A stretch of 64,000 bases of DNA, from the NCBI GenBank assembly GCA_016297695.1, contig JAEDGC010000001.1:23161-87160 (forward strand), given 5' to 3'. This stretch comes from Bacilli bacterium (GTDB lineage: Bacteria > Bacillota_I > Bacilli_A > RF39 > UBA660). Positions 1 through 37,373 of this stretch are shown here, in pieces. The position numbers were made by a program, and so were the translations under genes. The notes under the pieces were generated by a model. That model saw nothing but the letters and a program-made list of their open reading frames with translations, ran no database searches and was not told the origin of the DNA. The stretch's first letter is position 1, and each line of letters starts with the position of its first letter.

Positions 1-168
1 AGTCTATTTGAAGTTGTGAGTAATTATTATGATTATCAATTTAATTTATATTCAGTTATTTATTCAAATAATAAATTTTATAGATTACTCCAATCTAAAG
101 ATATTGATTATTCTATTGAAGGATCTAAAAATTCAATAATATTAGCTATGGAAGTAGCAGATGATTAA
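1..168 (+). CDS. 3' end of an upstream virion (tail/baseplate module) gene, partial
   Basis: Frame 1 is open from the window edge to TAA at 166-168 (...SKNSIILAMEVADD*). The next gene starts 24 nt later. Function is assigned by position only. Confidence 0.4.
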   Translation, partial: SLFEVVSNYYDYQFNLYSVIYSNNKFYRLLQSKDIDYSIEGSKNSIILAMEVADD

Positions 169-191
169 ATAAAAAAAGGGGGTAAAAGGAG

Positions 192-3100
192 ATGGCTGAT
201 GAAGCTTTTTTAGACGGAGAAGGCTTAACTCAAGTGGTTACTTGGTTAAGAGATAAAGATGTTGGACAATATACAGATGAATCTAAGACTAATGAAATAT
301 TTAATGATTATTCTAACAATAAAGCAAAAGGGAATTATAATCATGCAGAAGGATATAATACTCAAGCAATAGGTTCATATAATCATGCAGAAGGTTATAA
401 TACTACAGCTGGTTCATATCAAAATGCCTATTACAGATACTGCGGAAATCCAATTTTACAAGTTGAAAGTGGAACTTCTATTATTAGTAAAGCTACAATA
501 GATAGTAATAATTATCAAATATCTGGAAAAACTGGTGCTTTCTCACTAGATAGTATAGAGCTACCAGAAGATTTTACTGTAGGAAAATATAGTTCAGAAT
601 TACAGATATTTGATTACAATTATGTTTTTAATAATGATAATTGGTATACTACACAAATTACTAATATAGAAACGACTGATGAATTAAATTCTTTGTTTAC
701 TACTTTATTTGAAAATAATTCAAATATAAATAGAAAAATATATATGGTTTCAGAAGAACCAACAGAGGTATCTGATGATTTATATATATATAATGGCGCA
801 ATATATTGTTCTGCTTTTATGGATAATAAAATTACTGTATCAGAAGATACTATTAACGTCCTTACAACTATTAATACTCTTGAATCTCAAAAAGATAATT
901 ATATTACAACATTATATGTAAATGAATCTAATACATTTGGTTTTATATATTATTTAGCTGACGATAGTTTAATATTATTTAAACAAGAATATGATATTAA
1001 TAATATAATAACAATAATTAATCTAACTAATAACTATGGTACTTTTAAGAAAATTGATAAAGTTTATCAGTCTGCGCCAACTATAACTACTCAATTAGGC
1101 TTAGTATGTGGAACTTCTTTTAATTCAACAACAACTCCGCAATATTATGGAAAGAGTGGTAAATGGGAATATCTTAATGAATATAATGTTGTATTAACTA
1201 TTACAGAATCAGATAGGACAGTTTATGATAGCGAAGGAAATCCAACAGATGTTGTTAATCCATCACTTATAGTTACATATAATGATGAAATTTTAATAAA
1301 TAAGACAGTAGATTTTGCTACTGATACTCTTGATTTTATTTATAATAAAAATGAAGAAGAAATTTTTAATTGGTATTTAGATGGTAGTATAGTAGATTTA
1401 TCTGAATATGGAATTTCAGTAGAAAATCAACAAGAATACGATATTATTTCTTTTGAATTAAATAAAGTTTATATATCTTATGATTCAGAAGGTAATCAAA
1501 TAGAAAAAAATCAAGAAGAATTTTATAATGATAATCACGCATCTGGAACTACTTCTTATATATTTAATGGTACTGCATCGGGAAATTGGGTTAAAATTGT
1601 AAAAGATGGTGCAATAGGAAATACTACTTATTGTCACGCAGAGGGTTATAAGACTATCGCAACTGGGACAGGAGCTCACGTTGAAGGTGGTTGTTACAAG
1701 GAAGACGGAACAGAAAATACTTCGCGTGTAATTAGCATATCTTCTTTGGAACCTGATGGAGAACCTACAGAAGTAGAAATCATATCTTCTCGTGCTGACG
1801 GTATACAAGCTCATGCTGAAGGTACTCAGACATACGCATATGGATATTCCTCTCATGCAGAAGGTTATCAAACTATCGTAACTGGACCTGATAGTCACGC
1901 TGAAGGAATACAGACTCAGGTTGCCGGTAGCGGTTGTCACGCAGAAGGCCTTCAAACAAAAGTACACGCAGGTACGGCAAACCACGTTGAAGGATTAAGT
2001 TTATCAATCGCTGATGGAACAGCAAATCATGCAGAAGGTATGTTTAATACAATTTCAAACGGCTTAGCAAATCACAATGAGGGTATGTCAAATATAATCT
2101 CTTCTACCGGTAATTGTAATCATGCAGAAGGCAATGGTCATTATATATATAACGGAACAGCAAACCATGCAGAAGGATATGGTCATCATATTAACGAAAC
2201 TACTGCTGGCGACTATAATAGTGTTAGAAATTATGCAAATACTACTGATGGTAATTATGCTTCTGATATTTGCTGTGGTACTAATAAAGTTAAAGGCTGT
2301 AAATATACAAGCGTTAGCGGACAATCTAATACAGTAACAAATGATTATGCTTCTATTATATCTGGTATGAATAATACAACAGAAGGTGGCTGGAGAAATA
2401 TTATAGGTGGAGATAGGAATGAACTTCAAGGCGGACTTAATATTATATCTGGTCAAGGCAATAAAGTTAGTGGTAATGTAAATATTATTGTAGCAAATGG
2501 TGAAACTGTTAATGGTAGTTATAATCTCATTTCTGGTCTTAATAGCACAGCACTAAAAGGTGATGGCAATATTATAGGTGGTACTGCTCATTCTAATTGC
2601 AGCGGGGATAATAATTTAATATTTGGTGATGTTAATTCTGTTAGTGGTAATCAAAACATCATAGGTGGTACAAGTAATAAAATAGTTACAATAGAAAAAA
2701 ATAAATATTCTAGGGATAATGCAATTTTTGGAAGTATTAATTCTATTTATTCAGGAGAGAGCAGTATCATCGGAGGTACTTATAATACCTCATATAATTC
2801 ATTTCAATTTATTTTTGGTACTAGTCTTCAATCGGGGAATACAGACACTATTAACTCGGCGAGATCCGCTCTGGTCATTGGTGAGTGTAATGAAAATTGT
2901 TTTACCGATACCGAATATGTACTAACTAATGATACCATTTATTATGACACTCATAGTAAAACTTACTATTATATTAAAAATGATGAATATTATAAAATAG
3001 AAATTCTTTCAAATACAACTCCTAATAGTAATTGGTATGAATTAGTAAATGATGAATACATAAAAACTCAAGATAAAGAAATGATAGAAAATAAAGAATA

Positions 3101-3392
3101 TTATTATAGATATAGTGATACTGATTATAGATTAATAAAAATAAAAAATACCGAAATTACTCAACCCATCTATGAAATTAAACAATATATAATGATTGCA
3201 GGTAATGGAATCTATGATAATAGATCTAATGCTTTAGAATTAGATTATCAAGGTAATTTACAAACATCTGGAGATATTATAAATGGTGATGGGGTAGTGC
3301 TTGGAGCATATATATCTAATGAAAAAATTGATGAAATATGGGATAATATTTTTGGAGGAGGTAGAGTATGCTTAGTACAGACGAGTTCTTAA
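192..3392 (+). CDS. tail fibre / adhesin-like protein with YadA-head-type repeats
   Basis: 1066-aa ORF with an AAAGGAG RBS. Many degenerate tandem repeats of the form (N/S)HAEG.xT.A.G (aa ~50-75 and ~490-690), followed by NxxxG-rich repeats. Lies in the fibre/lysis block. Confidence 0.7.
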   Translation: MADEAFLDGEGLTQVVTWLRDKDVGQYTDESKTNEIFNDYSNNKAKGNYNHAEGYNTQAIGSYNHAEGYNTTAGSYQNAYYRYCGNPILQVESGTSIISKATIDSNNYQISGKTGAFSLDSIELPEDFTVGKYSSELQIFDYNYVFNNDNWYTTQITNIETTDELNSLFTTLFENNSNINRKIYMVSEEPTEVSDDLYIYNGAIYCSAFMDNKITVSEDTINVLTTINTLESQKDNYITTLYVNESNTFGFIYYLADDSLILFKQEYDINNIITIINLTNNYGTFKKIDKVYQSAPTITTQLGLVCGTSFNSTTTPQYYGKSGKWEYLNEYNVVLTITESDRTVYDSEGNPTDVVNPSLIVTYNDEILINKTVDFATDTLDFIYNKNEEEIFNWYLDGSIVDLSEYGISVENQQEYDIISFELNKVYISYDSEGNQIEKNQEEFYNDNHASGTTSYIFNGTASGNWVKIVKDGAIGNTTYCHAEGYKTIATGTGAHVEGGCYKEDGTENTSRVISISSLEPDGEPTEVEIISSRADGIQAHAEGTQTYAYGYSSHAEGYQTIVTGPDSHAEGIQTQVAGSGCHAEGLQTKVHAGTANHVEGLSLSIADGTANHAEGMFNTISNGLANHNEGMSNIISSTGNCNHAEGNGHYIYNGTANHAEGYGHHINETTAGDYNSVRNYANTTDGNYASDICCGTNKVKGCKYTSVSGQSNTVTNDYASIISGMNNTTEGGWRNIIGGDRNELQGGLNIISGQGNKVSGNVNIIVANGETVNGSYNLISGLNSTALKGDGNIIGGTAHSNCSGDNNLIFGDVNSVSGNQNIIGGTSNKIVTIEKNKYSRDNAIFGSINSIYSGESSIIGGTYNTSYNSFQFIFGTSLQSGNTDTINSARSALVIGECNENCFTDTEYVLTNDTIYYDTHSKTYYYIKNDEYYKIEILSNTTPNSNWYELVNDEYIKTQDKEMIENKEYYYRYSDTDYRLIKIKNTEITQPIYEIKQYIMIAGNGIYDNRSNALELDYQGNLQTSGDIINGDGVVLGAYISNEKIDEIWDNIFGGGRVCLVQTSS

Positions 3393-3631
3393 ATATAGAA
3401 GGGTTTACTCATACCCTCGAAAAAATAAAGTCAATAACAAGCACTTATATGTATGAACAGGGAGTTGCTGCAAATATCTGGGAGATTAATCATAATATGG
3501 GTAAATTTCCTTCTGTTACGGTAGTTGATAGTGCAGGAAGTGTAGTAATTGGCGCAATTGAATATATAGATATAAATAATTTAAAAATTACTTTTAATAG
3601 TAGTTTTGGTGGAAAAGCTTATTTGAATTAA
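3368..3631 (+). CDS. small hypothetical protein of the fibre module
   Basis: 87-aa ORF overlapping the preceding stop. No motif recognised. Confidence 0.4.
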   Translation: MLSTDEFLNIEGFTHTLEKIKSITSTYMYEQGVAANIWEINHNMGKFPSVTVVDSAGSVVIGAIEYIDINNLKITFNSSFGGKAYLN

Positions 3632-3645
3632 AAGGAGGAACTTAA

Positions 3646-4530
3646 ATGGCTGCTGAAAATAAATTTTTAGTACATTTAAATTTAAACGGAAATGAAATTA
3701 GAAATGTGATTCTACAAAATTTGAGTAGCGCACCAGAGGTAGAAACTGGTACGAATATAGGTAGAATGTACTATGATACAACAGAACTGACACCAAAAAT
3801 CTTTAATGGAACTGAATGGGTTTCTTTTGGTGGAAGTGAAGATACTAATACAACTTATTCTTTTAGTATTACTGAAAAAAATGCTGACGGTAATAAGGAA
3901 AAATATTTCCATTGGGAAGATTCTGATGGAAAAAGTGGAGATATTCTAATTGTAACAATAGATGGAACTGTATCTAGTACATCTACTAATCCAATACAAA
4001 ATAAAATTATAAAAGCTTATGTAGATACAACAGCAGAATCTACTTTAGCAAGTGCAAAAGAATATGCTGATGGATTAGTTACAAGAGCTATGAATTATAA
4101 AGGTACAATTAGTCGTAGTTCGGGCTTACCAACAGAAAATGTAAAAATTGGAGATACTTATAAGGTTGCGGAAGCTGGAACTTACGCTAGTCAAACAGCT
4201 AAAGTGGGTGACATATTTATAGCTTCTTCTGCTACTCCTACTTGGGATTATATTCCATCTGGTGATGAATCAAACGTGATTGTATATACAGCTACTAATC
4301 CAACTCTTACTGCTACATCTGGTGGGGTTTGTGAATGGTCTATTACTACAGTTGCCGCATCAAAAAATTCAATTCAATCTGTTGCGGTTTATGAAAATTC
4401 AACAAATGAACAAGTTTATCCTAATATTACTATATCAGGAACTTCAAATCCTACAATTAAGATAACCATTGGAGCATCTGTAGGTACTACTATTAATGCA
4501 AATACATATACTGCACGATACATTTATTAA
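3646..4530 (+). CDS. tail fibre protein
   Basis: 294 aa with an AAGGAGG RBS. The N-terminus (FLVHLNLNGNEIRNV...GRMYYDT...IFNGTEW) resembles phage fibre attachment domains. Confidence 0.6.
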   Translation: MAAENKFLVHLNLNGNEIRNVILQNLSSAPEVETGTNIGRMYYDTTELTPKIFNGTEWVSFGGSEDTNTTYSFSITEKNADGNKEKYFHWEDSDGKSGDILIVTIDGTVSSTSTNPIQNKIIKAYVDTTAESTLASAKEYADGLVTRAMNYKGTISRSSGLPTENVKIGDTYKVAEAGTYASQTAKVGDIFIASSATPTWDYIPSGDESNVIVYTATNPTLTATSGGVCEWSITTVAASKNSIQSVAVYENSTNEQVYPNITISGTSNPTIKITIGASVGTTINANTYTARYIY

Positions 4531-4545
4531 TAAGGAGGCATTAAA

Positions 4546-7500
4546 ATGAAATTATTAGCTCCTATTATAAATGATGAAGATGTTGTTAATAAAAAATATG
4601 TAGATACTACAGCAGATAAACTACAATCTCAAGTTGACAATATTCAGATAGGCGGTCGAAACTTATTATATTATAGCCGATTTGATAATAAATATGCTGA
4701 TTACTGGTACTATCCACCGAGCGTAACGTATTCGTTTGACAGTGGTTATACTACAATGACAAAGCCTGAAACCGCAGCAAGACAGTTTACAACGCAAGCG
4801 TCAAATAAAAACTTAAATTTGTTACCGGAAAACGGTTGTAGCTACACGCTTTCCTGCGAAGTTATGAAAGCGGAAGGGCTTAATGTCGGATATGGAACAA
4901 AGGTCACAGTAAGATATAACTACACGGACGGTACAGTAAAGGATTTTGACATTAATATTCCAAGTGATATTACAGAAGATGTATGGCATAAATGTAGCTA
5001 CGCATTTACATACTCTTCCGGCAAAACTATAAACTATACACAGTTTATAGTTGCACTTGGAGCAGAAGCCTGTGGAATCAAGATAAAGAATGTGAAGTTT
5101 GAAAAAGGCAATAAAGCCACTGATTGGACACCCGCACCTGAAGATGTTGACAATAATATTGCTGCGGCTATTGATGCAGTTGAAATTGGTGGACGAAATA
5201 TTGTAACTGGAACGGCAACAATGACTATTGGTACCGGTGGTCGTAGTGTAGGACATTGGAGAAAATCCGGAACAGGAACAATCGAAACCATAGACATTAC
5301 TGATACACCTTTGCCAGGTATTAATAAAGGTATAAAGATTACATCGTCAGAAGCAGGTTCACAAATAGGTATAGCACAAGATAAAACTCCATTGAATAGC
5401 AGTAGTATATATACGCTTTCTTGTTGGGTGCGTAGCAATGCAGTGTCAGGTCTTGAATGTAGATTACAACCTTTTTATTTATCGGCTTCTGATTATGGCG
5501 GAAATGGTGCTTTTAACATTACAAATCAATGGCAACATATAAGTTATACGACTATAAATAACCCAAAGAACACAACAGAGTATAGTGCATCATATATCTA
5601 TTTAATACCACAATCAGAAGGTGATATACTAGAAATATGCGGTATCAAATTAGAAGTCGGAAACAAAGCAACCGACTGGACTCCTGCCCCTGAAGACATT
5701 GACAATAATATTACGGATGCAACTAATGATTTTATAAAAGAATTATCTGTATCAAAAAGGACTATTACTTATACGAAGGGCGATGGCTCAACAGGTACTA
5801 TTACAACACAAGATACGATTACAACTGCCACTACAACTGGTTCAGGTAATGCAGTTACAGCAATTACTGCGAATGATAAAGGAGCATTAACAGTTACTAA
5901 AGGTGCTACCTTTTTAACAGCGCATCCTACTATTGCTACAAGTATGGATTCTACGTCTACTGCTTCTCCAAGTGCGGGAGATACATTTACAGCTATAGAC
6001 GCAGTAACAAAAGATAGTAATGGTCACGTAACTAAAGTAAATACCAAAACCATTACCTTACCTGCTAAACAAACTACAATATCTGGAAATGCAGGAAGTG
6101 CAACTAAACTTGCGACTGCGCGTACTATACAAATAAATTTAGAAAGTACTTCATCAGCTTCTTTTGACGGTACTGCTAATATAACACCAGGAGTTACTGG
6201 TACTCTTCCAATATCTAATGGAGGTACTGGTCAGACGACTGCTAAAGCTGCTGCAAACTCTTTTATAAATGCATTAGAAACAGGAAGTGATACTCCACAA
6301 GATACAGATTATTATGTATCTCAATATGCTGGGGGTGGAACAACTAATACTAGTTATGTTAGACGGACAATGAGCGCTTTATGGAATTATATTAAAAGTA
6401 AACTTGCTACTGTAGCAACCAGTGGTTCTTATAATGATTTGAGTAATAAACCAACTATACCTACTGTTGGAAATGGCACTATTACTATTAAACAAGCTGG
6501 TACTACAAAAGGAACATTTACAACAAATCAAGATGGTAATACAACTATTGAATTAACAGACAATAATACAGATACTAAAGTTACTCAAATAGTAACTACA
6601 AGTAATGCTAACTATCCTCTACTACTTGCTCCAAGCGGACAAACTACTACTACTACTACATCATCGTATTTTGGTACAGATCTAATATTTAATCCAAGCA
6701 CAAAAACACTTAAAACTAAACAGTTCGAAGGAAATCTTGCTGGTAGTGCAGTAAGACGATATGTATATGGAGAAGATAATAATGTTACTACTAACTACGG
6801 TTATTATAAAATAGCAAGTTTTACAATAGATTCCCCATATTACACAGCCGTATTAAAACTACGTATTTGGTCAGATAACTTTACTAATTTTGCAAGAACG
6901 CCTGCAGAAGTAACTATTGTTTTTAGGACTAATTCAACAACAGCAACAACTACTAACGCTTATACATACGTTGATGGAGAAATAATCGCACCTTTATTAA
7001 ATTCAATATATTTAAAATATCCTAATACTACAAACGCTGGTACTTGTGAACTTTATTTTTATAAAGATGCAACCTATCAAAAGATAGATGTAGATGTATT
7101 ATATGAAGGTATAAGAGGTAGCACTCCTTCAACATATCAATATCAGTCAGTTTGGACGTTTTCAGATAACAAAGTAATTTCTAATGATATTGCGGAAGAT
7201 GGATATGCAGTTGCAACATTAAACGCTTTAAAACAACATCAAGCCATAAAAGCATCAACGTTTACTGGTATTCATAATTATGAAGGTAATAATGGAGCTT
7301 GGGGATTAAATATCATAAGAACTGATTTTACAAAAGGCGATATTCCAACTTATAATACATATTGGGCATTGAATTTTATGGATAAAAATAGTGGAAATTC
7401 TCACGCTAATAGAATAGGATATTTAGATAGTTATATTGATACAAGCGGAAATTCTTATATAGAACTATGCGCTATGAATAATGTATTAAATGACACGACA

Positions 7501-8598
7501 GGTGCAGTTATTAGATTTGGTAAAAAACGTGATGGCACAGAATATCTAAGATTAGGCTCTTCTACGATAGGTAGTAGTGATAGTCCAGTATATATAAATG
7601 GAGGTATTATTACATCTACAGGTAAAAAGTTTTCAAATTATTTACCATTAGCAGGCGGAACTATGAGTGACACAATAATTTCATCTAAAACCACTAACTC
7701 ATATTTAAAAGGAAATCAAGGTGAAGCTATTATAAACTCAACAGCAGGGGCCGGTTCTTATACAATGCTTGCTAAAACAAATTCCGCAAATGGTTATTTC
7801 ACTACTGGTTCTTATCAAACTAAATATTTACTTCAATATACAGAAAAAGCCACTGTTGACGCAGGCACTAACGCTGTAACGAAATCTGTTACATTATTAG
7901 ACGAATCAGGAAATAGTTCTTTCCCTGGAACGGTTTCTGCTACTACATTTAGTGGAGCGTTATCAGGTAACGCTTCCAGTGCTACATACTCAACAAATGT
8001 AAGAGTAACTGATACTAATCCTACTACAGGAGCATGGTATTACCCAGTATGGGCAGATAATAAATTAGCAGATACTAACTACAAACTAAAAGCTAATGAC
8101 GGCCTTTGTATGTATTCATTAAATGGCACAACATCAACAGTAGGGAGAACATATTTAAGCATTGGTAATTCAACAGCGTCTGGGACAGCTGGCAATAAAA
8201 AAGGCTATTTGAGACTATATAGTGAATCATCAAGCTATACTGATATTCTAGCTACAACTTCCTCTGATAATTATAAAGTTGTACTTCCCGATTCAAATGG
8301 AACAATAGCATTAAGAACAGAATGTGTAGAAGGTGTAATTGGAGGTAATTCATTAACATTATCTTACATAACTGGAAGCAAAAAAGTTTTGCTGATAGGG
8401 ATTAGTACAGATATGAGTACTTCTTGTGCAGTCACTCATACAATATCGAATAGTATGACTGCTGTTTCGAATAAAACACTGCTTAGTTTTGGAGAAGATA
8501 GTCTTAAGTATTCTATCTCAACCAAAGGTGATATTACATTAACTAATGTTGGATCAGCTTCTTACGGATCGAAATACGTAGCTATATATTTTAAATAA
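4546..8598 (+). CDS. large tail fibre / receptor-binding protein
   Basis: 1350 aa with an AAGGAGG RBS. N-terminal DVVNKKYVD fibre motif. Two copies of a module ending GNKATDWTPAPED(V/I)DNNI. Long S/T/G/N-rich shaft. Confidence 0.7.
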   Translation: MKLLAPIINDEDVVNKKYVDTTADKLQSQVDNIQIGGRNLLYYSRFDNKYADYWYYPPSVTYSFDSGYTTMTKPETAARQFTTQASNKNLNLLPENGCSYTLSCEVMKAEGLNVGYGTKVTVRYNYTDGTVKDFDINIPSDITEDVWHKCSYAFTYSSGKTINYTQFIVALGAEACGIKIKNVKFEKGNKATDWTPAPEDVDNNIAAAIDAVEIGGRNIVTGTATMTIGTGGRSVGHWRKSGTGTIETIDITDTPLPGINKGIKITSSEAGSQIGIAQDKTPLNSSSIYTLSCWVRSNAVSGLECRLQPFYLSASDYGGNGAFNITNQWQHISYTTINNPKNTTEYSASYIYLIPQSEGDILEICGIKLEVGNKATDWTPAPEDIDNNITDATNDFIKELSVSKRTITYTKGDGSTGTITTQDTITTATTTGSGNAVTAITANDKGALTVTKGATFLTAHPTIATSMDSTSTASPSAGDTFTAIDAVTKDSNGHVTKVNTKTITLPAKQTTISGNAGSATKLATARTIQINLESTSSASFDGTANITPGVTGTLPISNGGTGQTTAKAAANSFINALETGSDTPQDTDYYVSQYAGGGTTNTSYVRRTMSALWNYIKSKLATVATSGSYNDLSNKPTIPTVGNGTITIKQAGTTKGTFTTNQDGNTTIELTDNNTDTKVTQIVTTSNANYPLLLAPSGQTTTTTTSSYFGTDLIFNPSTKTLKTKQFEGNLAGSAVRRYVYGEDNNVTTNYGYYKIASFTIDSPYYTAVLKLRIWSDNFTNFARTPAEVTIVFRTNSTTATTTNAYTYVDGEIIAPLLNSIYLKYPNTTNAGTCELYFYKDATYQKIDVDVLYEGIRGSTPSTYQYQSVWTFSDNKVISNDIAEDGYAVATLNALKQHQAIKASTFTGIHNYEGNNGAWGLNIIRTDFTKGDIPTYNTYWALNFMDKNSGNSHANRIGYLDSYIDTSGNSYIELCAMNNVLNDTTGAVIRFGKKRDGTEYLRLGSSTIGSSDSPVYINGGIITSTGKKFSNYLPLAGGTMSDTIISSKTTNSYLKGNQGEAIINSTAGAGSYTMLAKTNSANGYFTTGSYQTKYLLQYTEKATVDAGTNAVTKSVTLLDESGNSSFPGTVSATTFSGALSGNASSATYSTNVRVTDTNPTTGAWYYPVWADNKLADTNYKLKANDGLCMYSLNGTTSTVGRTYLSIGNSTASGTAGNKKGYLRLYSESSSYTDILATTSSDNYKVVLPDSNGTIALRTECVEGVIGGNSLTLSYITGSKKVLLIGISTDMSTSCAVTHTISNSMTAVSNKTLLSFGEDSLKYSISTKGDITLTNVGSASYGSKYVAIYFK

Positions 8599-8613
8599 GG
8601 AGGATGGTATATA

Positions 8614-9294
8614 ATGTTAATTTTTAAAGATAATACTTGGCAAATTAACGGGTCGTATCCTGATTTTGATTATACAAGATATGAAAGAGTTTATAATGAT
8701 AAACTGTCTGATTATGAAATAAAAGAAAAAGAAGATTATATCGAAAATGTTAATCCTGTAGTTTATGTAATATCTGACGATTCTCCTTTAACGTCTAAAG
8801 TTATGCAGTATGCTCCTAATATGAAGGTCATCACCGACGAGAAAGGAATCGTTATTGATGTTATAGAGGATTATTCTCTTGAAGATGTAATTAAATTAAA
8901 AATTGCAGAAGTTAATAATTCTTGTAATAATACAATTTATAATGGTATTGATTATAATGGAGAACATTTTGATTTAACTGAAGAAGATCAAATAAATATA
9001 ATGTCTAATCAAAAAACAGCCGAATTAGGCATTCCAGTTCCTTATCATTCTTCTAGTGCAGATAAAACTCTTCCTTGTAAGATTTATACTCCAGAAGAAT
9101 TTATAGGTTTAGCAAGGGCGGCAGCAGAATTTAAAGTATATCAATTAAGTTATTGTAATTTATTGAAGTGTCAAATATGGGAAATGACAGATAAAGAAGA
9201 AATAAAAGCTATTAAATATGGTGATTCTTTAAATGACAAGTATCAAAATATGTTAAATCAACTATTAGGTGGTCAAAATGAAACAAATTTTTAA
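8614..9294 (+). CDS. fibre-associated protein (DUF4376-like C-terminal half, from memory)
   Basis: 226 aa with a GGAGG RBS. C-terminal ...NGIDYNGEHFDLTEEDQINI...IYTPEEFIGL... resembles DUF4376 proteins found next to phage fibres. Confidence 0.4.
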   Translation: MLIFKDNTWQINGSYPDFDYTRYERVYNDKLSDYEIKEKEDYIENVNPVVYVISDDSPLTSKVMQYAPNMKVITDEKGIVIDVIEDYSLEDVIKLKIAEVNNSCNNTIYNGIDYNGEHFDLTEEDQINIMSNQKTAELGIPVPYHSSSADKTLPCKIYTPEEFIGLARAAAEFKVYQLSYCNLLKCQIWEMTDKEEIKAIKYGDSLNDKYQNMLNQLLGGQNETNF

Positions 9295-9694
9295 ACAGAT
9301 TTTTTTATATATAATAGGTGGATTGATCTATTTATTAATAGAAATTTTATTTAGGGGACATACTCATTGGACAATGTTTATTATTGGCGGATTGTGCTTT
9401 ACTTTGATAGGCTTGCTGAATGAGTGTCCCAATCTCCGCCTATCTTTAATTTATCAAGGTATTTTAGGCTCAGTTATTATTACTACTATTGAACTTATTT
9501 CTGGAATAATAATAAATATTATTTTAAAGTGGAACGTTTGGGATTATAGTAATCAGCCATTAAATTTATTAGGACAAATATGTTTGCCATTTAGTTTAGC
9601 ATGGATCTTTTTAGCTATCATCGCAGTTTTTGTAGATGATATATTAAGATATATAATATTTAAGGAAGAGATTCCAAAATATAAAATTTTATAA
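9278..9694 (+). CDS. multi-pass membrane protein of the lysis cassette (holin-like)
   Basis: About 4 predicted TM helices. ATG at 9278 follows AGGTGG (the ORF track starts at GTG 9269). Lies immediately upstream of the holin and endolysin. Confidence 0.5.
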   Translation: MKQIFKQIFLYIIGGLIYLLIEILFRGHTHWTMFIIGGLCFTLIGLLNECPNLRLSLIYQGILGSVIITTIELISGIIINIILKWNVWDYSNQPLNLLGQICLPFSLAWIFLAIIAVFVDDILRYIIFKEEIPKYKIL

Positions 9695-9706
9695 GGAGTG
9701 TTTTAT

Positions 9707-10000
9707 ATGGATTTTAGTTTTTTAAAAGATTATATTGTATTAGTTGTAGTGGGAATTTGCCTTATTATAGGTTTTATTATTAAAAATGTAATTCCTTCAG
9801 AAAAAATTAATAAATTTATTCCCTTAATTATGGGAGTACTTGGAGTAGTATTAAATTGCTGGGTAAATAATTGGGGGTTCAGTCCAGAAATTTTACTTGG
9901 CGGTTTAGCAAGTGGATTAGCTTCTACTGGTTCCTATGAATTAGTAGATAATATTAAAGGTCTTTTTATTAAAGGAAAGGATGATTCTAATGAAGATTAA
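9707..10000 (+). CDS. holin
   Basis: 97 aa from ATG 9707 (AAGGAG RBS 8 nt upstream). Two to three TM helices and a charged C-terminus. Overlaps the endolysin start. Confidence 0.6.
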   Translation: MDFSFLKDYIVLVVVGICLIIGFIIKNVIPSEKINKFIPLIMGVLGVVLNCWVNNWGFSPEILLGGLASGLASTGSYELVDNIKGLFIKGKDDSNED

Positions 10001-17703: not shown

Positions 17704-17740
17704 GTATATATATTATAACAAAAATTTTTTAAAATTTCAA
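17704..17740 (-). promoter_or_regulatory. class-2 promoter, copy 3
   Basis: TTGAAA-TTTTAAAAAATTTTTGT-TATAAT upstream of tRNA-Met. Confidence 0.6.
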
Positions 17741-18177
17741 AAGTAACAAATGTAATCAACATCTTCGTCATAACTTGGAGTTTCAAAATTTTTATACATT
17801 CTTTCAATAACTGACTCAGGAACGACTCTTTGTCTATTTGAATTTCTTTCAAGAGCAGTATCAATTGGAGTTTTACAATAGCAAATTACATTATTACAAT
17901 TGTATTCTCTACCAATATCAGTAATAATTTTTCTATCTTTTTTTCGGATATTGGTAGCATCAAAAATAACATTCTCACCAAGAGATAAATAATTTCTTAT
18001 TCTTGAATAAGCAAGAGAAAAAACTTCTTTGCCATTGCCTTGAATGTTTTCATCTCCGTATAATTCTTCTCTAATGGAATCAGTTGAAACAATGTTACCA
18101 TTGAAAAATTTTGCAATTGTAGATTTACCACTTGCGGGGATGCCGCACATTATGATTAAATTCATTCTATGCTCCAC
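17737..18177 (-). CDS. polynucleotide 5'-kinase-like P-loop protein (T4 Pnk kinase-domain-like)
   Basis: Walker A GIPASGKST, then STDSIRE (D-x-x-R spacing as in T4 Pnk D35/R38), FDATNIR, and RNSNRQRVVPESVIERMYKNF (compare T4 [22 protein letters not shown]). No phosphatase domain. The real start may be ATG 18165. Confidence 0.65.
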   Translation of the reverse strand: MEHRMNLIIMCGIPASGKSTIAKFFNGNIVSTDSIREELYGDENIQGNGKEVFSLAYSRIRNYLSLGENVIFDATNIRKKDRKIITDIGREYNCNNVICYCKTPIDTALERNSNRQRVVPESVIERMYKNFETPSYDEDVDYICYF

Positions 18178-18395
18178 TTTCTAAATAAGTTGATTATTTC
18201 CTCAGAAGGTTCAGAATCAAACTCAACAGTAAGAACGCCAGATAAATCAATAGAGAAAATTCCCATAATTGACTTACCATCTACCGCATAGTGCATATTC
18301 CTAACAGTGATTCTACCATTAAACTTGTTTGCCGCATCAACAAAAGACTTAACATCATCTATTGTATTCAGCTTCATTTTAAATAAACTCTGCAT
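18162..18395 (-). CDS. HPr-like small protein lacking the catalytic His
   Basis: 77 aa. ...KLNTIDDVKSFVDAA...VDGKSIMGIFSIDLS..LTVEF... resembles the clostridial HPr-family-like proteins (from memory). Confidence 0.45.
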   Translation of the reverse strand: MQSLFKMKLNTIDDVKSFVDAANKFNGRITVRNMHYAVDGKSIMGIFSIDLSGVLTVEFDSEPSEEIINLFRKWSIE

Positions 18396-18416: not shown

Positions 18417-18455
18417 TTCTATAAATATTATAACAAAAATTTTTTAAAATTTCAA
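18417..18455 (-). promoter_or_regulatory. class-2 promoter, copy 4
   Basis: TTGAAATTTTAAAAAATTTTTGTTATAATATTTATAGAA upstream of 18395. Confidence 0.6.
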
Positions 18456-18460
18456 TAAAC

Positions 18461-18498
18461 AAAAAAAGGGGAAGAGCAGAAAACTAAGTTCTGCTCTT
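18461..18498 (-). terminator. terminator closing the upstream tRNA transcription unit
   Basis: Stem AAGAGCAGAA/TTCTGCTCTT followed by CCCCTTTTTTT on the minus strand. Confidence 0.7.
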
Positions 18499-18522
18499 TA
18501 AGAAAAGGAATGTTGTTACAAG

Positions 18523-18611
18523 TGGCGGCGGACAAAGGTGTCGATCCCTATAGGAGTAAACCTACGCATTGTTTTCAAGACAAGCCTAATTGCCGAATTA
18601 GTTTATCCGCC
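18523..18611 (-). tRNA. tRNA-Ser (UGA), type II, atypical T-loop
   Basis: GGCGGAT...loop CTTGAAA...variable arm TAGG/CCTA...ATCGACA T-loop...GTCCGCC-G-CCA. The anticodon stem and T-arm are weak. Confidence 0.5.
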
Positions 18612-19004
18612 GTATATAAAACTGGACTGTCTTTTGATTATTTACTTCGACTTGCGAGCAGTCCAGAGTAGTAAATAACCTCTTGTTAGTCATCTGCTAC
18701 GAAGCAGCTCGGCGGCAGTATATATCATTTCAACTTACCGCAGGCTGCAAGCCTTTTTCTAACAAAAATATTAAGAAGAAGCCTTCAGCCATAGGAGCAG
18801 CTTCCATGCATCCTTACTAACGAGATGTGTAAGGACATTAGATTATGATTCTTTTAAAATTAATGGTTGTCCTATCCTTGAGAAGTTGCTGTTATGCTCG
18901 CTTGATAGATGACTATTTAAGCTACACTGTTACACCATTCAATAAAATTTAAAAATCGACTCTAATGTTTACTACCCGCCTATATTCACAGCTCTTAATA
19001 TTGT
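18612..19004 (-). ncRNA. 393-nt structured RNA with group-I-intron-like P, Q, R, S strings and no ORF
   Basis: Minus-strand order: CCTGCGGTAAGTTGAAAT (18744-18727), ACTGCCGCCGAGC (18719-18707), GCAGATGACTAACAAGAGG (18697-18679), AAAAGACAGTCCAG (18635-18622). GCGG/CCGC and GACT/AGTC can pair as P4 and P7. No exons identified. Confidence 0.4.
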
Positions 19005-19490: not shown

Positions 19491-19616
19491 TGGTGCGGAG
19501 AATGGGATTCGAACCCACACTGAATGGATTTTTGGTGCGAAATATTGGGGTTGAACCAATTTAATGATACCGATCATTTCGCAAGTCCATTGCCTCTGCC
19601 GTTGGGCTATCTCCAC
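19491..19616 (-). tRNA. tRNA (anticodon UAA after insert removal) interrupted after U34 by a 50-nt minihelix
   Basis: GTGGAGA-TA-GCCC-AACGGCAG-AGGC-A-ATGGA-CTT[insert]AAAA-TCCAT-TCAGT-GTGGG-TTCGAAT-CCCAT-TCTCCGC-A-CCA. Confidence 0.65.
19533..19582 (-). ncRNA. nested acceptor/T-arm minihelix with CCA
   Basis: GCGAAAT-(GATCGGTATC-ATTAA)-ATTGG-TTCAACC-CCAAT-ATTTCGC-A-CCA. Perfect 7-bp acceptor and 5-bp T-stem. Confidence 0.6.
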
Positions 19617-19650: not shown

Positions 19651-19728
19651 TGGTGACGGAAACAGGATTTGAACTTGTAAAAACCTGCTCACTAAGACAG
19701 GCGTGTATGCCAATTCCACCATTCCGCC
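19651..19728 (-). tRNA. tRNA with an 8-nt anticodon loop (CUUAGUGA; UAG-type)
   Basis: GGCGGAA-TG-GTG..CAC-G-CCTGT-CTTAGTGA-GCAGG-TTTTT-ACAAG-TTCAAAT-CCTGT-TTCCGTC-A-CCA. One extra U relative to a canonical CUUAGGA loop. Class-I variable loop. Confidence 0.5.
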
Positions 19729-20047: not shown

Positions 20048-20784
20048 TCTGAGTGAAGAGAATCGAACTCTTGTTTCCGGATCCAGTAAAAAATACTCTT
20101 ATAAAACAGGGAACTCCTTATATTTCCAATAATAATTATAAGCCATTTTATTTTTTGCTATGCTCTCCTTAATATATCTTATTTGTCTATCGTCAAACTT
20201 TTGTTTTAACTCTTCTGTTGTCCATAATTTTTCTTCCTCTAAATCAGAATAAGAAATAAATCTGTTATCAGAGTACTTTTTTATAGGAGTTTGAGTTATT
20301 ATTGATTGAATCACATTATCTATTAAATAATCTGAAGCGATAGACATTGTAGATTGTATTCCTTTTTTAGGTGATTTAATCCGTAAATACTTTTCAGTTG
20401 AAACTTCACCAATAGGAATTAAAAATCCGTATTCTTTCCAAGAAGTATAAAAATAATCAACTTCTTTTTCTGAATAAGTATATTTTGTTGTTTTTTGAGT
20501 ATTAGTTGTACTTCTCGTAGCAGACATTTTTAATACACCTTCATCTTCTGAATAAGAAGATGCTTTACACTGTATTTTATATAATTTATCATTAATATCA
20601 ACGATTAAATCATATCGACAAGAACCGCTAAATGGAATACTACAATAATACCCTCTTTTTTGAAAATCTAAGATACATTGGAGTTCATTTACATCGCCAC
20701 GAATTAAAGTGCTATCCATAGCAAACTGTTTTATATTAAAGTTTTTCTACCAAATCCGGGGGCTTACCTCTAACCGACACCCAG
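20048..20784 (-). tRNA. tRNA-Pro (UGG) interrupted in the anticodon loop by a 666-nt ORF-bearing insert
   Basis: 5' half CTGGGTG-TC-GGTT-AGAGGTA-AGCC-C-CCGGA-TTTGG. 3' half GA-TCCGG-AAAC-AAGAG-TTCGATT-CTCTT-CACTCAG-A. C1-G72/A73 as in bacterial tRNA-Pro. No CCA. Confidence 0.65.
20099..20719 (-). CDS. PD-(D/E)XK homing endonuclease (I-Ssp6803I-like, from memory)
   Basis: 206 aa. GDVNELQ...RYDLIVD...YKIQCK gives the E/D...QxK catalytic pattern of the intron-encoded PD-(D/E)XK family. Fills almost the whole insert in tRNA-Pro. Confidence 0.55.
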   Translation of the reverse strand: MDSTLIRGDVNELQCILDFQKRGYYCSIPFSGSCRYDLIVDINDKLYKIQCKASSYSEDEGVLKMSATRSTTNTQKTTKYTYSEKEVDYFYTSWKEYGFLIPIGEVSTEKYLRIKSPKKGIQSTMSIASDYLIDNVIQSIITQTPIKKYSDNRFISYSDLEEEKLWTTEELKQKFDDRQIRYIKESIAKNKMAYNYYWKYKEFPVL

Positions 20785-36929: not shown

Positions 36930-37373
36930 TTATTCAAGTTCACCGAGTATATCAAGCATATTGACTACATCAAAAGCATTTATACCCCATTCTGCACGAT
37001 TATTTTCTTCATCATCGAATAAATAACCATTCTTTTCTCTTGCTACTGTGCTTTTAGGTGTACCATAAGGTACAATGTGAATTTCATCAAACTTTACACT
37101 TGGTAAATGCTTATTGAGCCAAAAGTTTTTTGCTTTTTCAACAGCCTTGTCATATTCGGCGGTTGCGTGTTTACTTCCCCATGATATTATTCCTATTGTA
37201 TATCCTTTTCTCTGTAAAGTATTTAATCTTCTTGCAAGAGCGGATAACTTTACAAGCGGTCTTGCTTGTATATAGGGTGTTGCATCCTCCGCCCTTAATT
37301 TCTTTAGCCAATTATCAACGCTGTATAAGTCAGCTATTGTTCCATCCATATCAAGATAAATTGCCTTTGTCAT
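36930..37373 (-). CDS. HAD-superfamily phosphatase (nucleotidase-like)
   Basis: DMDGT motif I at residues 8-12. 147 aa. Confidence 0.6.
   Translation of the reverse strand: MTKAIYLDMDGTIADLYSVDNWLKKLRAEDATPYIQARPLVKLSALARRLNTLQRKGYTIGIISWGSKHATAEYDKAVEKAKNFWLNKHLPSVKFDEIHIVPYGTPKSTVAREKNGYLFDDEENNRAEWGINAFDVVNMLDILGELE

Follow-up and report, generated by a model that had tools for sequence, protein, structure and literature searches.

A stretch of 64,000 nucleotides (nt) from a Bacilli bacterium assembly (GCA_016297695.1, contig JAEDGC010000001.1, positions 23,161 to 87,160; hereafter the window, numbered from its first letter) is phage DNA of about 30% guanine plus cytosine that was found in gut, pig-gut, digester and wastewater metagenomes. 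Its tRNA island contains a two-gene operon encoding a 77-amino-acid (aa) protein of the HPr fold and a 142-aa protein that we identified, from its sequence and modelled fold, as a predicted minimal stand-alone 5'-OH kinase of the Pnk clade, for which RNA would be the substrate. On balance, we consider it probable that this kinase is the 5'-end-healing enzyme of a phage RNA and tRNA repair kit whose genes are dispersed.

The kinase and its coupled HPr-like partner

The two genes and the translation signal between them are:

17737..18165, minus strand: predicted stand-alone Pnk-clade polynucleotide 5'-kinase, P0001, 142 aa (Pfam, PDB profile, AlphaFold/Foldseek)
18172..18175, minus strand: GGAG ribosome-binding site of the kinase gene, 6 nt upstream of its ATG and within the 3' end of the HPr-like gene
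18162..18395, minus strand: HPr-fold protein, 77 aa, translationally coupled to the kinase (PF00381, 4.6e-6)

The open reading frame of the kinase (17737..18177) can be read from a GTG at position 18177, and a preliminary description of the window had reported a 146-aa protein. While the frame and the minus strand were retained, the start was moved to the ATG at 18165, because this codon is preceded by GGAG, overlaps the TGA stop of the HPr-like gene as ATGA, is the start of the 142-aa gene call and gives the N terminus MN.LI with which all homologues in a 43-homologue alignment begin. The same GGAG arrangement was present ahead of the kinase gene in L003, L004, L100 and L101, loci of related phages. 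Residue numbers below follow the 146-aa numbering unless the 142-aa form is stated (D33 is D29 in the 142-aa protein).

Searches matched the kinase to AAA_33 (3e-24) and KTI12 (5e-18) in Pfam and to PHROG 505, 'polynucleotide kinase' (6e-22). The best NCBIfam match was TIGR03574, far under its cutoff, and the PSTK and bacterial Pnkp models of NCBIfam matched over N-terminal parts only. Used as a single sequence against the PDB, the kinase retrieved the kinase domain of C. thermocellum Pnkp (CthPnk, 6.5e-14), archaeal PSTK (9e-13) and T4 Pnk (0.035), while a profile of the 43-sequence family retrieved CthPnk (2.4e-25), PSTK (8e-24), Pnkp1 (4.5e-16), T4 Pnk (3e-14) and mammalian PNKP (1.6e-9), with PFK-2 and adenylate kinases as far weaker matches. 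Matches to deoxynucleoside kinase and adenylate kinase had E-values of 0.01 or worse. The AlphaFold model had a predicted local distance difference test (pLDDT) score of 95, and a Foldseek search with it returned CthPnk as all of the top six matches (template-modelling (TM) score 0.92-0.94, root-mean-square deviation (rmsd) 1.5 A), with PSTK at TM 0.80-0.85, T4 Pnk at TM 0.76-0.79 and mammalian PNKP also among the fold matches. Membership of a defence system was considered for the kinase and rejected, the only PADLOC match being to VakA at E = 2e-4.

The motifs GIPASGKST, D33-x-x-R36, D73-A-T75-N and R111-x-x-x-R115-x-R117 were invariant or nearly so in the 43 homologues. The P-loop (G12-IPASGKST-20) aligned with CthPnk K21/S22, and its G, K, S and T were invariant across the family. 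Residues were mapped by single-sequence alignment to CthPnk, with their roles taken from PMC3902929:

K18 and S19 (CthPnk K21 and S22): P-loop, binding of nucleoside triphosphate (NTP) and Mg2+
D33 (CthPnk D38): general base; invariant in the family
R36 and T75 (CthPnk R41 and T80): anchor of the first phosphodiester; invariant in the family
R111 (CthPnk R116): stacking on the NTP base
R115 and R117 (CthPnk R120 and R123): lid arginines
V123 and M127 (CthPnk V129 and H133; Met139 in T4): pocket for the first nucleobase

Every catalytic and acceptor-site residue of CthPnk was conserved in the kinase, most of the positions being invariant in the family, and the CthPnk residues at these positions are experimentally essential (PMC3902929). 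Since the acceptor residues are conserved, the acceptor site looks built for a nucleotide carrying a 3' phosphodiester, that is, for a polynucleotide. The 142 aa hold the kinase domain only, with no fused 3'-phosphatase or 2',3'-cyclic phosphodiesterase domain. A C-terminal tRNA-binding domain of the PSTK/KTI12 type is likewise absent, as the matches reach no further than the first 139-143 positions of models with lengths of 249-271 and the protein ends at residue 142. Sequence, profile, fold and the conservation of residues essential in CthPnk thus agree with the preliminary description of a kinase-only, Pnk-type polynucleotide kinase without a fused phosphatase. The motif-by-motif match to T4 Pnk on which that description had relied was real as far as the motifs go, but the nearest relative proved to be bacterial Pnkp.

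The HPr-like protein, whose presence beside the kinase had also been reported, was modelled with an HPr fold (pLDDT 85, TM about 0.7 to HPr structures) and belongs to a subfamily of 75-77-aa proteins common in Clostridia. Across the whole subfamily GIHARPA is replaced by TIDDVK with a five-residue deletion, so that the protein lacks His15. The subfamily would point to a host among the Clostridia. The Ser46 motif is kept as GKSIMG, in which KSIMG is invariant and Ser42 is the equivalent of Ser46. The pair is conserved inside the tRNA island of related gut phages of about 120 kb, with identities to the window proteins of 87% (HPr-like) and 89% (kinase) in L003, 80% and 51% in L004, L005 and L100, and 77% and 50% in L101; in all of these relatives the HPr-like stop and the kinase start overlap or are separated by a few nt at most. 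Identities of 77-87% for the HPr-like protein against 50-89% for the kinase suggest that the former is under tighter constraint. It could act as an adaptor, a regulator or a substrate, and we found no account in the literature of RNA repair that involves an HPr-like protein.

As a general partner of the kinase family, the HPr-like protein was rejected: KSIMG was found within 6 kb of the kinase in only one of 80 phage loci with kinase relatives from IMG/VR (L069), and there 4 kb away. Bacterial HPr-like genes lacking His15 occur as tandem pairs, divergent to a MiaB-like radical-SAM gene and smpB (L012-L014, 5745-6228), and a kinase neighbour of these tandem pairs was looked for with none found. 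In another stand-alone subclade of the kinase family, the gene overlapping the kinase start encodes a product of 59-61 aa that is not HPr-like (L010 1334-1513; L102 9823-10008; L104 9826-10008); of these products only that of L010 was translated, and it is very basic. It may be that stand-alone Pnk kinases are generally coupled to a small upstream partner.

Transcription of the operon can be read from three signals:

18425..18455, minus strand: promoter cassette of the HPr-like/kinase operon (TTGAAA, 17-nt spacer, TG-TATAAT; 11 of 12 consensus positions, extended -10)
18472..18498, minus strand: intrinsic terminator, a 10-bp stem followed by a T run, which closes the preceding tRNA/RNA unit and not the kinase unit
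17710..17740, minus strand: the promoter cassette that comes next, which drives tRNA-Met and later tRNAs; its -35 and the kinase stop codon overlap

The 31-nt cassette TTGAAATTTTAAAAAATTTTTGTTATAATAT was present in eight minus-strand copies between 16850 and 27372, four of them exact, against an expectation of zero by chance, and exact copies precede both the kinase operon and tRNA blocks. The repetition of the cassette suggests a regulon of strong promoters of the early or middle class. As it is shared with the tRNA blocks, the kinase operon is probably co-regulated with the tRNAs. Of the promoter-terminator unit that had been proposed for the pair, the promoter at 18425-18455 was found, whereas the terminator at 18472-18498 ends the unit before it; none was predicted between the kinase stop and tRNA-Met, and read-through from the kinase into tRNA-Met is likely.

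An RNA ligase beside the window and candidates for 3'-end healing

The preliminary description had seen no RNA ligase in the window. A ligase gene lies just outside the window, on a 13-kb Logan contig (L015) obtained by exact look-up of the window's first large protein. The contig is 100% identical to window positions 1-10591, extends 2,650 bp to the left and ends at the ligase:

L015 50-1255, minus strand, 1.4-2.6 kb left of the window: Rnl5/DraRnl-type RNA ligase, 368 aa, P0341 (profile matches)

The ligase contains PF09414 (5.5e-21) and a PHA02142 OB domain, and matched TIGR02306 (DraRnl, 5e-22), the Naegleria RNA ligase NgrRnl (5cot, 2.6e-21) and PHROG 968, 'RNA ligase' (2e-55). It was called as 368 aa from a GTG; because the frame is open to about 400 aa and the closest homologues have about 400 aa, the true start is probably some 96 nt upstream. 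The ligase P0341, as an identical protein, and the kinase are each recorded on a 124,720-bp contig, and the two genes lie about 19 kb apart with plus-strand tail and lysis genes between them. A genome devoid of any ligase had been put forward as an observation that would speak against the kinase assignment; with a ligase found on contiguous, 100%-identical DNA, the assignment is not refuted.

Rnl5 enzymes require a 3'-OH and a 5'-phosphate (PMC5397189), so the type of end that a Pnk produces suits the ligase. With a ligase in the phage genome that would use kinase-made ends, the arrangement is probably a dispersed version of the T4 Pnkp/Rnl kit or of the bacterial Pnkp kit. In the cooperation that we infer, the kinase and the HPr-fold protein would be made from one transcript by coupled translation, and we propose that the kinase, being under the same strong cassette as the tRNA blocks, appears when the tRNAs do. 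Its substrates would be broken RNAs, such as tRNAs that a host ribotoxin has cleaved within the anticodon loop, and it would move the gamma-phosphate of an NTP onto their 5'-OH ends. Removal of the 2',3'-cyclic or 3'-phosphate would fall to a separate phosphoesterase, and the Rnl5/DraRnl-type, ATP-dependent ligase would reseal the break from the kinase-made 5'-phosphate and the 3'-OH. The presumptive 3'-healing enzyme may be a HAD protein of the window (36930-37373) or a metallophosphoesterase, which relatives encode shortly after the ligase and which synteny would place there in this phage as well.

Two small HAD proteins are present in the window, at 36930 and 41149, where they had been reported, and the first is the candidate:

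36930..37373, minus strand: small DxDxT HAD phosphatase, 147 aa, candidate 3'-healing partner (four HAD motifs, synteny)

This protein has all four HAD motifs (DMDGT, K107, D120/D121), with D8, D10, K107, D120 and D121 invariant. In L010, L016, L102 and L104, homologues with 39-60% identity are encoded about 0.35-3.7 kb away from stand-alone kinases, and in L103 the HAD gene is cut by the contig end; no homologue was found in 71 loci encoding fusions of a Pnk kinase with an HD domain (Pnk-HD). PHROG 2643, 'deoxyribonucleotidase', matched it at 3e-8, and against the PDB its profile gave nothing significant and single-sequence searches were empty. The recurrence of the HAD would fit a kinase and DxDxT phosphatase split into two proteins, and would fit nucleotide metabolism equally. 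An assignment as a T4-type Pnkp phosphatase found no support: the longer homologues have no kinase domain, two carrying homing-endonuclease-type domains and the others having no Pfam match. As for the second candidate, a 184-aa metallophosphoesterase of the family seen in 10 kinase loci lies 1.2-2.1 kb past the ligase in the relatives L097-L099, and two of these IMG/VR contigs also carry the HPr-like/kinase pair, about 16 kb from the Rnl5 ligase and spaced as it is in this phage. Hidden Markov models of the HD, metallophosphoesterase, Thg1 and Rnl1 partners had no match in the window or its 2.65-kb extension, and no Hen1 was seen.

The wider kinase family was surveyed in the 80 IMG/VR loci, whose open reading frames were called and clustered. 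A kinase-cluster protein was obtained from 77 of them; 71 of these proteins have 288-480 aa, typically a kinase with a C-terminal HD domain, and six are stand-alone. An RNA ligase lay on the same strand within 6 kb in 55 of the 77 loci, with a gap of 20 nt or less in 19 of these. The ligases formed three clusters: Rnl1-type (PF09511, 1.3e-17), Rnl5-type and a third, present in 22 loci, whose matches to PF09414 (25.9 bits, cut-off 27) and PHA02142 were all below threshold. Recurrent neighbours within 6 kb in the 80 loci were Thg1-like proteins (10), DUF2828 proteins (9) and metallophosphoesterases (10). In GenBank, Bacillus phages encode a 341-aa 'polynucleotide kinase' adjoining an RNA ligase, and the logic of the phage RNA-repair toolkit has been published (PMC7824862).

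Two further associations were observed in this family. Proteins of about 275 aa without a Pfam match form a family encoded no further than 6 kb from a Pnk-HD gene in 26 of the 80 loci (e.g. L081 5157-5984). In the representatives seen, the gene directly adjoins that of the kinase, and the family may correspond to the RlaP nucleotidyltransferase, which is ligase-associated in PMC7824862. In L007-L009 (8001-10146) a stand-alone kinase 51% identical to that of the window lies two genes upstream of a Thg1-like 3'-5' polymerase, in a setting that resembles a mobile element with a type I restriction-modification methylase and specificity subunit, and this kinase and the Thg1-like protein are possibly another RNA 5'-end repair pairing.

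Alternative functions and the tRNA island

The pair lies between tRNA blocks, as the preliminary description had stated, and the four interrupted tRNA genes reported there (Lys, Glu, UAA and Pro) were all confirmed, using ARAGORN -i and comparison with the uninterrupted orthologues of L003:

17163..17311, minus strand: tRNA-Lys(UUU) with a 75-nt tRNA-shaped insert ending ACCA (ARAGORN -i, L003)
19491..19616, minus strand: tRNA(UAA) with a 50-nt acceptor/T-arm minihelix insert ending ACCA (ARAGORN -i, L003)
15619..16556, minus strand: tRNA-Glu(UUC) split by an element with an HNH open reading frame (15683-16474); the halves correspond to nt 1-36 and 37-76 of the L003 tRNA-Glu
20048..20784, minus strand: tRNA-Pro(UGG) split by a PD-(D/E)XK endonuclease open reading frame (PF11645, 2.9e-23); the halves match the L003 tRNA-Pro

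These genes raise the question of whether the kinase is dedicated to the splicing of tRNA-shaped introns, phosphorylating the 5'-OH of the 3' exon so that the Rnl5 ligase could join it, in a Trl1-like manner. The operon is placed among four interrupted tRNA genes under the same promoter, and the genome has a 5'-phosphate-dependent ligase, such as precise exon joining would require. We nevertheless think this function unlikely. L003, in which the Lys, UAA, Glu and Pro genes are intact, keeps the pair at 87-89% identity, so the kinase is not tied to these inserts and its link to tRNA-shaped introns is unproven; moreover, tRNAs were found within 6 kb in only five of 60 kinase loci elsewhere, for which reason location in a tRNA island was also rejected as a general property of the family. 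Cuts by RNase P and RNase Z-type enzymes would leave a 5'-phosphate on the 3' exon, and if such enzymes excised the inserts no kinase would be needed. A more elaborate proposal, in which the HPr-like/kinase pair, the Rnl5 ligase and a free phosphoesterase would constitute the healing-and-sealing arm of protein-catalysed phage tRNA splicing, acting on the tRNA-shaped introns of the island in the way of eukaryotic Trl1, with the HPr-fold protein as a phospho-regulated adaptor bringing the kinase to the tRNA halves, is distinctly doubtful. It is also unlikely, to our mind, that the protein phosphorylates nucleotides or other small molecules and works with NT5C-like HAD phosphatases on nucleotide pools. 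The recurrent neighbour of the stand-alone clade is indeed a small HAD, a 5'-3' deoxyribonucleotidase by PHROGs, AAA_33 also includes small-molecule kinases, and those members of the clade that are encoded on bacterial chromosomes lack a repair context; against this, the polynucleotide-acceptor residues R36, T75, V123 and M127 are conserved, the fold is nearest CthPnk with only marginal matches to deoxynucleoside and adenylate kinases, and the protein has neither a lid nor a nucleoside-monophosphate-binding domain.

The tight, conserved coupling of the two genes, the higher conservation of the HPr-like protein and its invariant KSIMG could instead point to a protein kinase acting on Ser42, which would yield a mimic of P-Ser-HPr/Crh and reprogramme carbon-catabolite control in the host; the related PSTK does phosphorylate a serine hydroxyl. 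This is very improbable, as the bacterial HPr-like relatives occur in tandem pairs without such a kinase, the HPr-like gene accompanies the kinase only at L069 among the 80 IMG/VR loci, and the acceptor site of the kinase is nucleotide-shaped. In addition, the surface of HPr from His15 to Arg17, which takes part in binding CcpA, is deleted. We give somewhat less credence still to a 5'-kinase that acts on DNA ends in the repair or recombination of phage DNA, as might follow cuts by homing endonucleases or host nucleases. Both CthPnk and T4 Pnk accept DNA in addition to RNA (PMC3902929), the fold matches include mammalian PNKP, and several homing endonucleases are encoded by the phage. However, the partners of the family are RNA ligases, Thg1-like proteins and RNA-binding DUF2828 proteins, not DNA ligases, and the gene lies in a tRNA island. 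Finally, a PSTK/KTI12-like enzyme acting on aminoacyl-tRNA, such as the Ser-tRNA of an adjacent UUA suppressor, is barely conceivable: although the PSTK profile match (8e-24) nearly equals that of CthPnk, TIGR03574 is the top, far sub-cutoff NCBIfam match and the suppressor tRNA lies 150 nt downstream, a protein of only 142 aa has no C-terminal tRNA-binding domain, its model is closer to CthPnk (TM 0.92-0.94) than to PSTK (0.80-0.85), and the anticodon arm of the suppressor is deleted in L003, which keeps the kinase.

Several observations weigh against the role in RNA repair that we favour. The kinase and the ligase, about 19 kb apart, do not form one operon, and Rnl5 enzymes are known as sealers of duplex nicks, not of anticodon loops (PMC5397189). 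No 3'-healing enzyme was verified in the sequence read (the window and its 2.65-kb extension), and no RNA sequencing run containing the kinase region was found. The tree puts the window kinase in a clade composed entirely of stand-alone proteins (35 leaves, support 0.90), and most of the ligase-linked Pnk-HD fusions fall outside it. This clade includes bacterial chromosomal members (Desulfuribacillus, Heliobacillus), and no ligase was found within 6-10 kb at L010, L016, L031, L068, L076, L090 or L102-104; the exception among stand-alone loci is L060, with an Rnl5 ligase and a metallophosphoesterase. Some stand-alone loci carry an NT5C-like HAD instead, which is also compatible with nucleotide metabolism.

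Other features of the tRNA island include a gene that closes it in all relatives and is syntenic in L003-L005:

13369..14823, minus strand: DUF2828/DUF7788 protein, PHROG 850 'RNA-binding protein' (Pfam 2.8e-30 and 1.7e-16; PHROG 4e-101)

Nothing relevant on DUF2828 and no paper on tRNA-shaped inserts was found in the literature, and a megablast search of the island against 50,697 phage records gave no match. Directly after tRNA-Met lies the tRNA with anticodon UUA (17511-17586, minus strand; Rfam 31.6 bits), which would read the UAA stop; ARAGORN calls it at a relaxed threshold only, and about 13 nt of the anticodon arm are lost from its L003 orthologue. Another tRNA (19651-19728, minus strand) has an 8-nt anticodon loop (ARAGORN anticodon 'tagt') and is 87% identical to the L003 tRNA-Leu(UAG), whose loop has 7 nt; it is possibly a tRNA of the frameshift type or else a gene in decay. 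A conserved stretch of about 480 nt without an open reading frame (18500-19004, minus strand; L003 9504-9890) lies between tRNA-Ser(GCU) and the terminator, and its 3' part (18523-18611) is a tRNA-Ser(UGA) according to ARAGORN at a relaxed threshold, the remainder having no Rfam match. A sub-threshold Rfam match to the hepatitis delta virus (HDV)-like ribozyme of F. prausnitzii (30 bits, cutoff 44; E = 0.011) was seen at 15027-15083 on the minus strand, starting from the 3' end of tRNA-Gln. If this element self-cleaves, the tRNA would end in a cyclic phosphate and the ribozyme would begin with a 5'-OH, ends of the kinds that concern a phosphatase and a kinase.

Significance and comparison with known repair systems

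RNA repair by a phage kinase, phosphatase and ligase is a known counter-defence against host toxins that cut tRNA, and the window would hold a stripped-down, dispersed layout of it. As the island contains tRNA genes split by tRNA-shaped inserts, the kinase and the ligase are also obvious candidates if these inserts are spliced. The kinase offers biochemistry a very small Pnk enzyme, and its coupled partner is the first hint we have found that an HPr-like fold may take part in RNA-end metabolism. For Rnl5 ligases, described in PMC5397189 as having uncharted roles in the cell, the kinase is moreover a candidate for the physiological partner.

The closest structural parallel is the kinase of bacterial Pnkp, from the Pnkp-Hen1 RNA repair system (CthPnk; PDB 4gp6, 4mde and 4jst). 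With 29% identity (TM 0.92-0.94, rmsd 1.5 A), the window protein shares with it the fold, the P-loop, the general-base Asp, the Arg/Thr phosphodiester anchor, the lid arginines and the nucleobase pocket. However, CthPnk forms the N-terminal part of a polyprotein that also comprises a metallophosphoesterase and a ligase and that acts together with Hen1, whereas the window kinase is free and its ligase, of the Rnl5 type, lies about 19 kb away. T4 Pnkp (pseT) and Rnl1, which repair tRNA-Lys cleaved by PrrC, belong to the same clade and share the catalytic logic, Asp35, Arg38, Thr86 and Met139 of the T4 enzyme all having equivalents here; in both cases a phage encodes the kinase as well as an RNA ligase. 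Unlike in T4, no DxDxT phosphatase is fused, the ligase is Rnl5 and not Rnl1, the genes are dispersed and an HPr-like gene is coupled to the kinase, and the match of the single protein to T4 Pnk is weak (E = 0.035).

Among phage proteins in GenBank, those most similar to the kinase (about 39-40% identity) are the Pnk-HD fusions of Bacillus phages (PJN02, Tsamsa-like), of which the 71 IMG/VR loci provide further examples. Their kinase domains are 37-47% identical to that of the window and fall with it in one BLAST cluster. The fusions differ in carrying a C-terminal HD phosphoesterase and in usually abutting an RNA ligase, whereas the window kinase lies in a separate clade and no HD domain was found in the window. 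The reverse domain order, HD-Pnk, is that of Runella slithyformis, for which no paper was found. Compared with HPr and Crh, the partner protein retains the HPr fold and KSIMG, but its His15 loop is replaced by one that is five residues shorter. What is new here relative to these systems is the kinase-only architecture, the conserved coupling to an HPr-like gene and the placement in tRNA operons.

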